Origin: Catajapyx aquilonaris
Lineage: Eukaryota
Reading direction: 5' to 3'
NCBI GenBank assembly: GCA_000934665.2
Contig: KZ538010.1
Location: forward strand, 1 to 64,000
Length of the DNA: 64,000 bases
Positions 8,000 to 63,531 of this stretch are shown here, piece after piece (position 1 is the stretch's first letter; every line of letters begins with the position of its first letter). The notes beneath the pieces were generated by a model. It saw only the letters and a list, made by a program, of their open reading frames with translations, searched no databases and was not told the DNA's origin. The position numbers and the translations under genes were made by a program.

Positions 8000-10900
8000 T
8001 CATTTGGCGGTGAAAACCTTGCTCGTAGTGAACAGGACCTTCGCCTTCTGCTTTTTCTTCTTCTTCCCACTGTTCCCACCAGCATTTTCCCTGTCATCTG
8101 CCTTCTCCAGAGCAGATGCGATGGCTTCCCCAAAGCTGTGGTGATACTCAGGCACAGGAACATGGTCCTCCGACTCTGAGTCACTGTGTTGGGGGCGAAG
8201 TTTAGTTGCATTGGTTGATGTTGTCACTGGTCTAGGTGTAGCTGGCTTGCATTTGCCTTCTCGCAGCATCTGTTCAAAGTAAACAGAGAAGCTGAGTACC
8301 ACCTGGGTTTTCAGTTGATGGCAGCAAGTCTACCTGTGCAAATGAAGGGAATGATGGCTCAACGTGGGTTATGGTAGCTGCTTCTACCACAGATGGGTCA
8401 ATGGATGGAGTTTCCACATATGCAGTGGAAGGCGGCATAAGGTTGCTGCGTGAAGATTTATCAGTTACTTATCTTCGTACAAGACTCTGGCACATTGACA
8501 AGTGCACCATCTCAAAAGCATTGAAATATTAAGTTGTTGTGTGTTCTCAAATAAGGCATGTTCAATATTTGAATTCAGTTCAAAAATGGCACAAAGGAAA
8601 AATATTAAAACTAGGGCTAGAGGGGCTACATTTCAAATTTCCATTTTCACACACACAACTGATATTATTCACACTTTCCAGGCTAGTCAACAATGTGAAC
8701 TGACCTGTTTGCAGGGCTCTGGTTCTCAAAACTGTCAGGAAACTGCCTTCTTGAGTCAATCTTGATCTGCGCTGAAGGGAATTTCCCCCACTTTCGTCCC
8801 TCCTCCTCAGCAATTCGCTTCTCCCTCCTCCTCTCATCTCTAGCTCTCCTCTGTCGCCGTTGCCGCCTCTCCTCCATTCGTTGCCTGAAGAGCTGCAGGG
8901 TGGCCCGGGATACCAGGGGAGGCCCCATCTCAACTTCCACCACCTCCAGTGGAGAGGCCAGGGGCAAATGGCGAAGGTGGCGCAGGCGAGACCGCAGCTC
9001 TTCCGTGAGAGAGGCTGAGTCCACCTCCACTACACTGGCTGTAATCTCGGTGGGGCAGAGCTCCAGGGAGCCATACTGGGCAGCTAGCATCTGGATGTTG
9101 AGTGAGTGCATGAAGACAGGCTGACCATCTGCTGATTGGTAGAAGTAATGGCAGGCCCGCTTTGTGCTAGTCTGCGACGGAGAGTGCGAAAGTTCAGCTT
9201 CTCCAGGAGTCACTTCCAGGTCCTCTGCAGTTAGAGTTACAATGCTGGCATCCAATGCATCATCACTATGATTGCCTTCGCTGTCTGTGCTCTCATTACG
9301 GGTACTGCCAAAATAATCATGAAATGCCTAATTAGTCCTACACAACACAAGCTTCAACTTAAAATACTAACCGTCCTGGAGTGGGTGACCCAAACTCCGA
9401 TTCGGAAGCTGATTTATCATCCACTTCATCATCATAAGCCGACTTGTAAACTATCCTGTTGGCCAGCTCTCCAACTTCATCTGCCTCTTCAATATGAATC
9501 CCATTTTCTTCCACCTTCTTGTCTCCTTCTTTCTCTGCACCACTTCCACCAATTTTGCCATTGCTTCCTTCCCCTCCATTTGTTTTGCCACTCAGTTCTC
9601 TTTCCCTTTGTGCCAGCAAATCAAGTGCTTCCTCAATGAAGCATGATTCAGGGCAGTCTCCCTCCTCATGCAGTTTTGCCTGAAGCTCTTCCCTCTCACG
9701 GCTCAACACCATATACTTCACCTGCAATGTTCAACAATAGTCTTTGTAAAATACGCCTATAATCGAGCAGATAATGTCCTCCAAAGCCAAGTTTAGTCAG
9801 GATTAAGATTCCCAACCAATTCATTAAAGGCGTAAGGAGATTTAATTTTCCCAAAGATCATTTCGACATGAGGAATATATGTTGCCCTAGTCGAACTCAA
9901 CTCTTTGGGAGTCAGCTTGTAAGTATGGAATTCCATTTTCTCTTTCCAATTAAAGTATGTTAGCTCAAAACATATCTTTCCTCACATAGGAGTACATGCA
10001 CTTAAAGAATACAAGTTGCTCTACACTTGGAACCAAACATACTTCATCCTGAGTGGCAGTGAGCAGCTTGCAGTGAACAGCCTCATCCACTTCATCACCA
10101 ACAGTCATTGGGATTGACCTCTGCTTTCTACCATCTTGTGCCTTTCCCACCCACACTGGGACCAGTGAATCCCTGTCCCTGCACATCAGCCGGAGCTTCA
10201 CCTCCTGCTTGACTACGACAGGTCGACTGGGAACTGGTACCACACTCTTCAGCTCCTGCTTGGTGGTAATCTCAAAACAGATGGGGCAAGCCCTCCAACC
10301 CTCATCTGATAGAGACAAATAGTGCAGGATGCAGGGCCAGCAGTACACATGTCCACAACGAGTCATCTTGGCACACACAGGTGGGTAGAGGCAGATGGGG
10401 CATGAGGGCATTTCCAAGCATCGCAAGCGCTGTGAATTTTTTACAAATAATTAGTGATACTTCCAAACTCTGATAAATATAATACCCTGTACTTTAAATT
10501 TAATGAATATTTTAATCAGCCATTAGACTAGCCTAGTCAACAATAGAAAGTCTCTGAACTCACAATATCCTCAATTAAGTCCCACTGGACCAGCAAATCA
10601 GGATCACAATTGTAGACAGAGTAATCACAGCCATATTTGACCACAAACTGGCAATTGGCTTGGAGGTACTGCTCCTTGTTGTATTTAGGCCGGTGTGATG
10701 TATGTGAGACAAAGAACCCATTAATGCCCCTCCCCCGAACACCCCTGTGGTTGCCTCCACCTCGCCAGTTGTGGTTCTTGTACTGGACACCGTCACGTGG
10801 AACAAAATAAAAGTTCAGCAGGTGATTCAGGTTGGGCTTCTTGGTGCCTGGTACCAAAACTGATCCAAACTCAGGTTCTTCAGGTTCCGCTACCTGCAAA

Positions 10901-11971
10901 TTCGACAGTGGCATTAATACCCAATGACAGCATGCTTGCAGCATTCTTCTTACCTGTCCACAATTTTTATGCTCCGAGTTGTATTGTCCCCTAGGCCTTG
11001 GTCTCTTGTCAAGAGCCTTGCTTTTCTGTGGAGTGGGCTTGTTGCGGCCTGGATCAGCCCGGAGGCGAAGGCTTGAACCAGACTCACGTCCATGGCCAGT
11101 CTTTGGGAACAGCTTTGTGCCCCCTAAATCTGAAAATAAATATGACAATATTTCTTCTATTTATATGTGTAATATTTCAATAAATTCTGCAATTAATTAT
11201 CCACCATATTAACAATTCATATTCTAATATGCTCAAAATACAACACAATAAGTCAATAACCATGGTCATCACTCTTGAGCACATTCCTTTGGAAAGTCTG
11301 AGCATTACACCACCATTTCTTATATCTAGTTTGTGTAGGTACCGACAAAGGTACTGTCCCGACAATCACTGGTCAATCCCATGAATACGAATTACGGAAA
11401 CTTAGAAAGGCACGGGAAGTTCACTTCCAGTTTGCTTCACGGCTTTGCTTATCAGTCTGACCCTGGCACAGTTACTCAAGAGTGTCACAACCGGTCACAA
11501 CAGTAAACATCCTACTGAATGGAAAAATTATGCAATGCTCCTATAATTTAATTTTACAAGTTTTGTGCCCCGAGTTTCTCAGATAATAATAGTGGAATTA
11601 CTAGCATTTATTTTGCAGCTATGATTTTTGCATGTGACGGTGTTGCTTACGCCCTGTTCATCTCTATATGCCACAGCAACCTATACAAATCCAATTGAAC
11701 TCTGCGTTCAGCACAGATGTGATCTCAACATACTGAACCATATTTGAACAGTCATTGACATGTACAGGCTTTCCGAGTCACATGGTGCTTGGGCCCCGCC
11801 ACTACCCCGAGGCAACCCTGTGGCACTCGGCCACCTTTCCCAACCAGCCAACCATCCATCTACTGTCCATCCAAGCAGCAGTCCTCTCTCACCTTGCTTT
11901 CCTTTACCTTCTGCCACAGCGCCCTTGGAGGCAGCAGCGGAGGCCTGTGTTCCCCTGGCCTTCTTGTCCAT
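8000..11971 (-). CDS. RNF10: E3 ubiquitin ligase RNF10 (about 767 aa, 8 exons)
   Basis: Exons 11971-11893, 11129-10954, 10893-10564, 10429-10043, 9721-9372, 9304-8705, 8445-8334, 8269-8000; motifs NLNHLLNF, KEQYLQANCQFVV, RING CPICLYPP..TRCGHVYCWPCILHYL, YFYQSADGQ, PSFAQML, C-terminal GKKKKKQK. Confidence 0.95.
9772..9912 (-). ncRNA. Box H/ACA snoRNA in RNF10 intron 4 (predicted)
   Basis: Same strand as host. Hairpin 1 (UCCCAAAGA/UCUUUGGGA; UUCGAC/GUCGAA), H box AAAUUA, hairpin 2 (CUCC/GGAG; UUGGUUGGGA/UCCUGACUAA), ACA at 9777-9775; about 140 nt. Confidence 0.8.
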
Positions 11972-20224: not shown

Positions 20225-20351
20225 GTATTTGGACAAGCATAATAAAATAATTACAATGAGCAAGCTCTTTCAATGAGATATGTCTGTGACAGACATATCT
20301 CATTGCAAGAGCTTGCTCATTGTAATTATTTTATTATGCTTGTCCAAATAC
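20225..20351. repeat. 127-bp near-perfect palindrome
   Basis: 63-bp arms 20225-20287 and 20289-20351, one mismatch, 1-nt spacer. Confidence 0.95.
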
Positions 20352-31600: not shown

Positions 31601-32043
31601 GACTTATAGAAGTTTTACTGTACGTACAGGCCACCACGACAGATCGATCCAAGTCGCCCAAAGCCGTCGTCTTTGCTTTGGCACAATCCCCTAGCACAAA
31701 CTGGCATCACTTTTTCTTAGCAGTTATGTATCTAGAGGTATATATAGCAGAGACCGAAGCAGTGGTAGCGGAGGGGATTTGGTATCCGACTGCTAATCGG
31801 GAGGTCCTGGGTTCGAATCCTGGTGGCCGCCGACTCTGACCGTGGTTTTCTGGGGTTTTCCACGGTCTCACCAGGAAAATTCCGGGGTTGTGTCCGTAAT
31901 TATAGGCCACAGCCGCTTCCTTCCGTCCCTATCCCGTCCCCATATAAGAGAAGTAAAAACGAAAGTAAGAGTTCCTGATTTAAAAAAATATGGTGGTATC
32001 CCACCCCCCTAAGAGAGCCCATGGCTCTAGCACGGGGTACAAA

Positions 32044-52200: not shown

Positions 52201-54017
52201 CAAAATCACCAGTCCTGTCTCCTGAACCACAGGGAAAATCACCAATCCTGTCGCCCGAACCACTGGAAAAATCACCAGTCCTGTCTCCTGAGCCACAGGC
52301 CATGTCACCTGAGCCACAGGCAAAGTCACCAATCTTGTCTCCTGAGCCACAGGCAAAATCACCCGAGCTCCCATTGTCCCCACCACTTGCCCCCCAACTC
52401 ACACCTATGTCTGGATTTGAGCCTCACTTCGAACAATCCTTTGCTTCCTCAGAACCACCTGTCCTCTCTCCTGTTCCTTCTTCTGGTTTTGCATTCTCAT
52501 CTGAGCCACCACAAGTTGCTGATCATGAGTTGATGTCACCTGAGAGAGAGAAGCCATATGAAGGTGCTCTGTCACCCACAGTGGAGAAGTCACCTGAACC
52601 TATGAAGCAACTGGAACCAGAATTTGACCTTCCATCACCAACAATGGTGGCAGCAAGGCCTGAGCCAACACAAGTGGAGTTGACCCTGTCGTCAGAGCCT
52701 ATTTTAACACCCGTGTTTTCCCAACCAGAACCTGAGACTGAACCACCAAAGCTGACTGAACCCAAACTGGAAGAGCTCTTTGTGGCCAAGGACCTGGAGA
52801 GGAATGAGTCCAACAGCGAGCTGCTTGATGTTGTAGAACCACACCCTGCAAGTGACTTGTCTGCTGCCATGGCTGAGCTGGAAGTTAAATCTAGACCAGA
52901 AGACCTCAACCTGGCTGCGGCCACAGCCCCATCTGTAGAGAAAAAGATGTCCAAGACCACCACACCAACCAAGCCCAAGGTGGGAGCCGCCGCAAAGTCA
53001 CCCACCAAGCCATTGTCGGCTAAGTCACCCACCAAGACAGCTCCAGCAGCAAAGGCACCAGTGAAATCAACTACCAATGCACCAAAGTCAGCTGCTCCTG
53101 CCGCAGCAGCAAAGAGGTTGACTCCAACTACTACAGCACCAGCTGCATCCAAGCCACGAGTGTCATCAGCCAGGGCGTCTGTAACCACAGCCATTGCAGC
53201 CAAACCTGCTTCGTCAGCTGCCACTGGAGCCAAGCCTGCTTCATCAGCTGGCCCTGGAGCCAAACCACCAGGAGCTGCAGCAGGAGCAAAACCCGATGCG
53301 AAGCGGCCATTATCCACTACTGCTGCAGCCAGGAAGCCATTGTTGGCAACTGGAGCAACCAGGCCTGTAGGTCCAGCTTCCCGCACTCCAAGTGCCAGTC
53401 CAACCAAACCTCCAGTGGCCAATGGGGTGGCTTCTAGGACAGCTGCAGCAACCAAACGACCTGTGCCAGCTGAGAGCAAGCAAGCAAAGGAGACAGCCAA
53501 CAAGGAAGTAGCTGCCAAATCTGCAACAGTGTCACGAGTGGCTGCCACCAAGAGTTCTGCTCCAGCCACCTCAATGACCAAGAAGGTGGCCGAGGTTAAA
53601 CCCAGGGTTACTCCTACCACCACAGCTGCAAGGGCCACCATGGCAGCAAAGGCACCAGCCAAGCCTGCACCAAATGCAGCCAAGTCGGCTGTCCCACCTC
53701 GGTCTACGGCCCCTGCAAAGCCAGCCGAGCCCAAGAAGTCTGCTTCAGCCACCATGTCGACAGCTGCTTCTAGGGCAGCCGCCAAGCCCCTGAGCAACAC
53801 CAAGACTGCACCTAAGCCAACGACTGTGACTGCTGTCAAGAAGCCATCTAGTGCTGGCAAGGTTGGGTCAGCATCCAAGACCAAGTCTCAGGAGGGTGAG
53901 GCCACCCCTGAGAAGAAGGAAGTAGCTGCCGAGACGGCTGAGCTGCCTGACATCCCCAAGGTGGAGAATGGGGTGGCTGAACCACAAGAAAACTCCGCTG
54001 CTGAGGCACACGTGTAA
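20915..54017 (+). CDS. PPM1E: PP2C-family phosphatase, PPM1E/PPM1F-like, with long low-complexity C-terminal extension (about 1583 aa, 11 exons)
   Basis: Exons 20915-21090, 25223-25350, 25531-25739, 25803-25994, 32319-32468, 32559-32652, 35891-36055, 47020-47366, 47529-47802, 49532-49689, 51159-54017, phases consistent; intact PP2C motifs RRKMEDRH, VFDGHAG, WLGDSQA, RVNGQLAVSRAIGD, LACDGLWD, GSSDNIT. Joining of exons 9-11 is inferred from splice sites and phase only. Confidence 0.85.
26892..27608. mobile_element. MITE, PIF/Harbinger-like
   Basis: About 69-bp TIR AGGTCTATTCTCATATCTGCGAGTAGTCGAAATATCGTTGCG...; perfect TTA TSD (26889-26891, 27609-27611). Confidence 0.9.
28115..28259 (+). mobile_element. 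5'-truncated copy of the 15241 SINE family
   Basis: TTCTCGGGGTTCTCCCGTTT..ATCAAAATCTATCACAG..GATCCCCTAAGAGGCCCAAGAAGGCCTATCACGGGGTATCC(TTA)n aligns by eye with about 15375-15546. Confidence 0.8.
28261..28541 (-). mobile_element. SINE family 2, inverted copy
   Basis: Reverse complement closely matches 31753-31935 (ACCGAAGCAGT..CCGACTGCTAATCGGGAG..AGGCCACAGCCGCTTCCTTCCGTCCCTATCC). Confidence 0.85.
28541..28612 (+). repeat. (TTA)n microsatellite
   Basis: About 24 perfect TTA units. Confidence 0.95.
29215..29470 (+). mobile_element. Possible degenerate tRNA-headed SINE
   Basis: A-box-like TGGCCGAGATGG (29221), B-box-like GATTCGATACC (29265), A-rich end at 29461-29470; no TSD seen. Confidence 0.4.
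30628..30760. mobile_element. Short piggyBac-like MITE remnant
   Basis: TTAA-CCC start then TGTAATGCCCACTGGGTCATATTTGGCACAC with inverted copy at 30730-30760; right terminal GGG-TTAA missing. Confidence 0.6.
31752..32093 (+). mobile_element. Full-length tRNA-derived SINE family 2 with (TTA)n tail
   Basis: B box GTTCGAATCC (31811-31820), (TTA)n tail, 13-bp TSD TATATATAGCAGA at 31739-31751 and 32094-32106. Confidence 0.9.
32166..32288. mobile_element. Small PIF/Harbinger-like MITE
   Basis: TIR GGCCGCATTTACATG vs GGCCATGTTCACATG; TTA on both sides; ends 30 nt upstream of PP2C exon 5. Confidence 0.7.
37204..37278 (+). repeat. (TAA)n microsatellite
   Basis: About 24 TAA units with two single-base interruptions. 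Confidence 0.95.
52038..52370 (+). repeat. Coding 33-bp tandem repeat, KSP(V/I)LSPEPxx
   Basis: About 10 units of 11 aa, core alternating KSPVLSPEPQG / KSPILSPEPL(A/E). Confidence 0.9.
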
Positions 54018-63025: not shown

Positions 63026-63465
63026 TGCCACCTCTCGCTTTATTTTAGAAGCGAGAGGTGGCGGACAAGACTGATTGTTTCTAAACACTTGGTTTAAGCT
63101 GCCTTGGTTTTTCATTCTGGATGTTGCCTCAATAGATACTCTCTCTCTCTCTCTCAAACTTGTAGTTTCCCTCGCCACAAGTGTAGAACAGCAAAAGCAG
63201 CACCCTTTCATTTGCTGATCTAAGTTAAAATCATGGGAAGTACTGCCTACTGCTGTCAAAATTAAACTGGATATGTAAATTGCAGGAATGCTGCTTTTAC
63301 TCCTTTAAAACTAATCTGTATATTAGCTGCAGGTTTCTCATTCATAACAGCTCATGAAAATTCTGGAAATGATAGCTATAGTATAACATAGTCAGTTATG
63401 ATAGATCAAAATACTTAACTAATGCGACAGGCGGAGTTTAAAAAACCAGGGCAGCCCAAACCAAG

Positions 63466-63524
63466 TTGTGCGAATGACGTCCAGCCTGTAAACTTGTTAA
63501 AAGGGAGGCTGGACTGAAGTATAG
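63466..63524 (+). promoter_or_regulatory. SECIS element (type II)
   Basis: AUGA 63474-63477, helix GUCCAGCCU/AGGCUGGAC, unpaired AAA 63490-63492, mini-stem CUU/AAG, UGAA 63515-63518, helix I UUGUGC/GUAUAG. Confidence 0.93.
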
Positions 63525-63525
63525 G

Positions 63526-63531
63526 AATAAA
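63526..63531 (+). terminator. Polyadenylation signal of TrxR
   Basis: AATAAA immediately after the SECIS. Confidence 0.7.

Follow-up and report, generated by a model that had tools for sequence, protein, structure and literature searches.

The window analyzed here, a 64-kb stretch of DNA, carries a gene for RNF10 on its minus strand, and within one intron of that gene lies a candidate box H/ACA snoRNA, the features of which are collected in Table 1. The coding exons of RNF10, located by tblastn with four homologues, fall at approximately 11130–10540, 10429–10043, 9721–9420, 9312–8737, and 8320–8003; the gene here has few, large exons, and at least two coding exons precede the intron that holds the snoRNA. 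A search with the RING exon gave 775 proteins at E ≤ 1e-8; those that carry a name are almost all RNF10, with 45–67% identity, and are spread over insects, amphioxus, cnidarians, echinoderms, and fishes. None of them is close, so that the source is probably a poorly sampled animal outside the vertebrates. The downstream exon of 214 amino acids matches 18 longer proteins at E ≤ 1e-10, and every match that bears a family name is RNF10 (38–53% identity). The initial annotation had proposed an H/ACA snoRNA candidate in an RNF10 intron, and this is borne out: the candidate RNA is sense-oriented to RNF10, and each of the two exons beside it has RNF10 proteins as its named homologues. The intron opens with GT at 10042 and closes with AG at 9722, so that the 3′ splice site follows 50 nt after the end of the snoRNA. 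Sense orientation within an intron of a housekeeping gene is an arrangement that favors a snoRNA.

Table 1. Positions of the RNF10 host intron and of the parts of the candidate snoRNA in the window
Feature	Position	Strand	Basis or remark
RNF10 host intron, 321 nt, GT..AG, phase 0	9722..10042	minus	splice sites; RNF10 homology of the flanking exons
Whole candidate box H/ACA snoRNA, 139 nt	9772..9910	minus	full-length Rfam SNORA36 alignment; two-hairpin fold
5′ hairpin: lower stem of 9 bp (9910–9902 with 9857–9849), upper stem and loop 9894–9863	9849..9910	minus	fold
5′ pocket, 5′ strand GUUGAGU	9895..9901	minus	pairs with ACUCAAC 3′ of the target U; 7 contiguous pairs, 31 of 31 18S
5′ pocket, 3′ strand AAUGA	9858..9862	minus	first 3 nt pair with AUU 5′ of the target U; starts 14 nt before the H box
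H box AAAUUA (ANANNA)	9843..9848	minus	direct reading; immediately 3′ of the 5′ lower stem
3′ hairpin: lower stem CUCC/GGAG and GCC/GGC; 10-bp upper stem and loop 9819–9793	9778..9839	minus	fold
3′ pocket, 5′ strand UUUAAUGAA	9820..9828	minus	8 Watson–Crick pairs with TTCATTAA of 18S; duplex −4.7 kcal/mol
3′ pocket, 3′ strand ACUUGGC	9786..9792	minus	6 Watson–Crick pairs with 18S GCCAAG; duplex −8.2 kcal/mol; starts 15 nt before ACA
ACA box (9777–9775) and 3-nt tail	9772..9777	minus	sequence

Structure of the candidate RNA

The hairpin–H–hairpin–ACA layout that had been claimed at 9772..9912 is present on the minus strand, with the 5′ end of the RNA near 9910 and its 3′ end at 9772. The minimum free energy fold of 9912..9769(−), as well as the centroid fold, consists of two hairpins, each of which contains an internal loop that forms a pocket. 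The energy of this fold (−39.9 kcal/mol) lies well below the mean of dinucleotide shuffles (−28.4 kcal/mol, sd 3.41; z = −3.37), and none of the 200 shuffles matches it, while the plus strand reaches only z = −1.56 and is equaled by 13 of 200 shuffles.

The features of the box H/ACA class are found together in this RNA: a hairpin–hinge–hairpin–tail fold, an H box that reads as ANANNA, and pocket tops within 14–16 nt of the boxes. The top of the 3′ pocket, at the end of the upper stem, lies 15 nt from ACA, the very spacing that had been claimed for it, and the top of the 5′ pocket lies 14 nt from the H box, given that the lowest U–A pair of the upper stem is opened. The ACA box stands three nucleotides from the proposed 3′ end at 9772, an end that is itself assumed.

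Resemblance to SNORA36 and the predicted target of the 5′ pocket

The Infernal/Rfam check suggested in the initial annotation has a divided outcome: no match is returned for the 64-kb window at gathering thresholds, but under E-value reporting the SNORA36 model (RF00340) is aligned over its full length (positions 1–132 of 132) at 32.9 bits, short of its gathering score of 43, with E = 0.00098 in 901 nt and E = 0.07 in the whole 64-kb window. The resemblance resides mostly in the 5′ hairpin, which alone scores 22.8 bits over model positions 1–71, and 18 of the first 19 aligned positions are identical to the SNORA36 consensus, the guide strand GUUGAGU included. Searched by itself against Rfam, the 3′ hairpin gives no H/ACA family at E ≤ 10; its sole match, at 13.2 bits (E = 6), is to a C/D family.

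In comparison with the SNORA36 (ACA36) of vertebrates, the candidate is alike in architecture and length, its 5′ lower stem and 5′ guide strand are near-identical, and its predicted 18S target is the 1244 site of the family. The 3′ hairpin, in contrast, is unrelated in sequence and forms no pairing to the Ψ105 site, and the 5′-side flank of the 5′ pocket is reduced to 3 pairs. As the candidate reaches neither the gathering score of RF00340 nor the Ψ105 pocket of the family, it is filed here as an H/ACA snoRNA related through its 5′ guide, and not as a member at the curated threshold. Yeast snR36, which belongs to the same Rfam clan as SNORA36 (CL00035), is an independently transcribed gene, whereas the candidate is intronic; its target, the universally conserved U adjoining the m1acp3Ψ site, is the one that is predicted for the candidate as well. 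The candidate thus resembles SNORA36/snR36 in its 5′ half and would be expected to act like it, as kin of the family at the level of the 5′ guide.

Targets in 18S rRNA were sought with a canonical scan, in which the target U and the next nucleotide are left unpaired, pairing runs contiguously to either side of them, and up to two pairs of the upper stem may be opened. The 18S set comprises at least 94 stretches fetched from metagenome contigs of eukaryotes other than this organism through the 21-nt motif of the initial annotation; the agreement of these sequences on that motif is no evidence of its conservation, because the motif was used to select them. From this set, 31 full-length 18S sequences of 1734–1816 nt were cut out for carrying both end-primer motifs. 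In a blind scan of the 5′ pocket, the best site is GGCTTAATT[T]GACTCAACACG or a close variant in 25 of the 31 full-length sequences, the target U being flanked by 3 pairs on its 5′ side and 7 on its 3′ side. The Ψ1244 site of the family is paired at 10 or more positions in all 31, and it is the sole site to reach that number in 22 of them. Permuted guides reach 10 pairs at the Ψ1244-equivalent site in 8 of 5000 cases and anywhere in an 18S in 820 of 2000, and as 10 pairs somewhere are common, the evidential weight lies in the coincidence with the documented site of the family and not in the pair count.

The target U is the last U of a UUU run, near position 1190–1200 in 18S sequences of about 1800 nt, and it lies 4 nt upstream of the m1acp3Ψ uridine (the U of GACTC). 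This 4-nt spacing in the fetched 18S sequences agrees with the 1187/1191 pair of yeast and the 1244/1248 pair of human. SNORA36 is listed as a guide for 18S-105 and 18S-1244 (PMC6466398), yeast snR36 is listed for 18S-1187 (PMC8307265), and snR36/U1187 has been equated with ACA36/U1244 (PMC3542256). The GUUGAGU strand is identical to the SNORA36 consensus at these positions, while the AAUGA strand is weaker than the consensus UAAUUAa, with 3 contiguous pairs against about 6. In yeast, a total of 8 pairs was reported to be sufficient, and a 3+5 split worked, so that the 3+7 pairs of the candidate exceed the experimental minimum (De Zoysa 2018, PMC6049503).

The initial annotation proves to be wrong in seeing no confident target for the 5′ pocket, as this pocket is the best-conserved part of the RNA and matches the SNORA36/snR36 guide for Ψ1244/Ψ1187, with 7+3 bp in 31 of 31 18S sequences. 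The broader claim that the RNA guides 18S rRNA modification very probably holds, through the 5′ pocket. The pairing is read directly from the sequence, and the U that it flanks, equivalent to human Ψ1244 and yeast Ψ1187, is the predicted site of isomerization.

The 3′ pocket and alternative explanations

The canonical 18S scan of the 3′ pocket yields no recurrent site, and 10 of the 31 full-length sequences lack any site that offers 3 pairs to either side. An extended canonical scan of 94 loci (244,325 bases), which covers 18S and at most about 1200 nt downstream, gives no recurrent convincing site either; one 4+6 site occurs in 3 loci. The Ψ105 equivalent was tried as a target of this pocket and rejected: in all 14 of the 18S sequences carrying that motif, the left flank forms no pair and the right flank no more than 4. 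The pocket is best treated as an orphan on these scans. An ordinary two-nucleotide target may nonetheless lie in large-subunit rRNA past the first few hundred nucleotides, in snRNAs, or in variable rRNA of the organism itself, given that the scan ended at most about 1200 nt beyond 18S and that many H/ACA RNAs combine one small-subunit with one large-subunit target, as does yeast snR44, which is listed for 18S-106 and 25S-1056 (PMC8307265). No positive support for such a target has emerged, and the sole large-subunit candidate, a single 5′ site with 9+4 pairs, includes six G–U pairs and is found in 2 loci; a target of this kind is therefore regarded as somewhat unlikely, though a tentative prospect.

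The missing canonical 18S target of the 3′ pocket, together with the score below the gathering threshold and the weakened 5′-side flank of the 5′ pocket, would also fit a decaying or silent SNORA36-type duplicate or retrocopy, the work being done by a better copy elsewhere, perhaps in the dyskerin gene, where vertebrates have theirs. The usual, though not strict, host of the family in vertebrates is DKC1, in contrast to RNF10 here: SNORA36A resides in DKC1 intron 8 (PMC9670813), and vertebrate ACA36 is described as located in DKC1 “from human to tetraodon” (Weber 2006, PMC1687206). ACA36 is also reported to give rise to retrocopies that settle in introns of other genes and to change its host, with a mouse copy in Nans, and divergence of one pocket has been proposed as a route to new targets (Weber 2006, PMC1687206). 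A host other than DKC1 in a distant animal is unsurprising. Like the mouse copy in Nans, the candidate is a SNORA36-type RNA in sense orientation within an intron whose host gene is not DKC1; unlike a typical retrocopy, it has neither an A-rich tail nor a clear target-site duplication, the only flanking repeat being an 8-mer at the intron borders that is about what chance would give in 361 nt, and the DKC1 location may never have been relevant outside the vertebrates. A literature search for a snoRNA hosted in RNF10, including SNORA36 in zebrafish, brought up nothing relevant in the accessible portions of the sources.

Against decay, the two hairpins and the two boxes are intact, as is the distance of each box from its pocket, and the 7-nt guide strand is unchanged from the consensus. 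The low score is moreover what would be expected in an organism that is probably non-vertebrate by its RNF10, as the model was built from vertebrates. A decaying or silent copy is accordingly judged improbable, and an intact guide in the 5′ pocket is preferred.

The initial annotation had assigned the 3′ pocket to a conserved 18S segment, and this claim stands in part: the strands and their 6+8 complementarity are real, but six nucleotides, three of them purines, are left unpaired, and no modification is mapped to the segment in human or yeast. The sequence UUAAUGAA at 9827..9820 is the strand that pairs with TTCATTAA, and CUUGGC pairs with GCCAAG; the unpaired target nucleotides are AATGTT, and one guide A is skipped. 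A loose geometry, in which only Watson–Crick pairs are counted and 2–8 unpaired target nucleotides are allowed, was applied to one 18S sequence. Under it, none of 300 permuted guides attains 14 pairs, and in a larger set 3 of 3000 do; among pseudo-pockets taken from the window, 9 of 7492 attain them. Both the structure of the RNA and its 3′-pocket complementarity exceed chance, and the geometry of this pocket is not the canonical two-nucleotide one.

The segment starts 236–242 nt before the Ψ1244-equivalent U in the 31 18S sequences, which places it at approximately 1002–1027 in human numbering. The human map, in its accessible part, lists no modification between 18S-1004 and 18S-1031 (Taoka 2018, PMC6182160), and the accessible part of the yeast map lists nothing between 18S-796 and 18S-974 (PMC8307265), the equivalence of the segment to this gap being an offset estimate. 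The human pseudouridine nearest to the segment, Ψ1004, was considered by eye and set aside, as modification of a U immediately 5′ of GCCAAG would require CUUGG in the 5′ strand of the pocket, and it is found in the 3′ strand.

Through an enlarged pocket, these strands could direct the isomerization of a uridine within or next to the U4 run of GCCAAG-AAUGUU-UUCAUUAA to pseudouridine, a function that would be compatible with that of the 5′ pocket. The 6+8 Watson–Crick pairs, rarely reached by permuted guides and pseudo-pockets, and the pocket top 15 nt from ACA speak for such guiding, as does yeast snR81, which accommodated as many as four additional unpaired uridines, for a total of six unpaired nucleotides, with the pseudouridine moved to the 5′-most U (De Zoysa 2018, PMC6049503). 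The unpaired nucleotides here, however, include A, A, and G, and in snR34 a single extra unpaired G beside the target U abolished modification in vitro while binding stayed tight, unpaired purines being judged unfavorable by the authors (Kelly 2019, PMC6800473). A strict canonical scan of the segment target gives 0 pairs on the left flank, and once G–U pairs are allowed, 133 of 300 permuted guides reach 14 pairs, which makes that number unremarkable. The GGC of ACUUGGC is also needed by the predicted lower stem, where it pairs with the GCC at 9831–9829 to close the pocket; and with no listed modification in the segment (PMC6182160; PMC8307265) and the agreement of the fetched 18S sequences proving nothing, as they were selected by this motif, modification through an enlarged pocket appears decidedly improbable.

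It is similarly improbable that the 3′ pocket docks on GCCAAG...UUCAUUAA through its 14 Watson–Crick pairs around a six-nucleotide loop, whether as a lineage-specific pseudouridine guide or as a modification-free tether in 40S assembly. If such docking were true, the RNA would contact 18S twice and would be encoded in the gene of a ligase by which defective 40S subunits are tagged for decay. RNF10 ubiquitylates uS3 and uS5 and thereby triggers 40S decay (PMC12008924), in agreement with the description of RNF10 in the initial annotation as a ligase for these 40S proteins. The link that had been drawn between host and guide, a gene for a 40S quality-control ligase carrying a guide for 40S rRNA, is a coincidence of themes, with no sign of coupling.

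Proposed pathway and significance

The locus is probably a box H/ACA snoRNA gene housed in an intron, and as such this organism's equivalent of the SNORA36/snR36 guide. From the sequence, the fold, the boxes and their distances, the family resemblance, and the complementarity, we infer a course of expression, processing, RNP assembly, and modification. The RNA would arise as part of the RNF10 pre-mRNA, and once the 321-nt intron has been spliced out, debranching and exonucleolytic trimming would set it free. During the trimming, dyskerin, Nop10, Nhp2, and Gar1, bound to both hairpins and to the H and ACA boxes, would shield it. The target U flanked by the pairing of the 5′ pocket would then be isomerized to pseudouridine. 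The 3′ hairpin would serve as the second half of the H/ACA particle, and its pocket either lost the Ψ105 guide of vertebrates or never possessed it.

The candidate is an ordinary member of a known RNA class and is apparently unannotated; standard Rfam annotation misses it because its score lies below the threshold. The complementarity of its 3′ pocket provides a testable case of how far H/ACA pockets stretch. The same guide function would be housed in different host genes depending on the lineage, in DKC1 in vertebrates, in Nans in the mouse, and in RNF10 here, and a probable guide for a highly conserved 18S pseudouridine beside the decoding center is added for a poorly sampled animal lineage.

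Repeats in and around the snoRNA-bearing intron

Both borders of the RNF10 intron that carries the SNORA36-like box H/ACA snoRNA candidate are straddled by an identical 8-nt direct repeat, ATACTTCA (+ strand). A repeat of this kind is expected by chance about once in 361 nt, and the presence of a copy at each splice junction is a curious placement despite the chance-level repeat count. Within the snoRNA candidate itself, a 13-nt near-repeat (85% identity) is found, one copy of which spans the top of the 3' hairpin and the other the H box together with the terminal part of the 5' lower stem.

Features of the window, with bit scores, gathering scores and E-values of the RNA-model matches
Feature	Position	Strand	Bits	Gathering	E
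RNF10	about 8003-11130	-
ATACTTCA, first copy	9713-9720	+
ATACTTCA, second copy	10039-10046	+
Near-repeat, 3' hairpin top	9803-9815
Near-repeat, 5' lower stem end and H box	9842-9854
mir-335 precursor model, hairpin	20238-20328	-	51.5	64	7e-9
Bacterial sRNA model	20227-20344	+	37.3
tRNA-like	31759-31831	+	27.4	29
isrG (bacterial sRNA) model, partial	53093-53288	-	31.3	100	0.00015
SECIS-like	63465-63531	+	29	35	0.14

Other RNA-model matches

The hairpin matched by the mir-335 precursor model, which is overlapped on the opposite strand by a match to an unrelated bacterial sRNA model, may be a genuine miRNA-like hairpin or else an inverted-repeat element. The partial isrG match is probably compositional. 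The tRNA-like match falls slightly below its gathering score, and a sub-threshold SECIS-like element lies close to the window end.

RNF10 gene structure and lineage

RNF10 is built of few large coding exons separated by introns of about 100-400 nt. Its nearest named homologues are just 45-67% identical and are scattered across many animal phyla, and this pattern of sequence similarity points to a sparsely sampled lineage for the organism.
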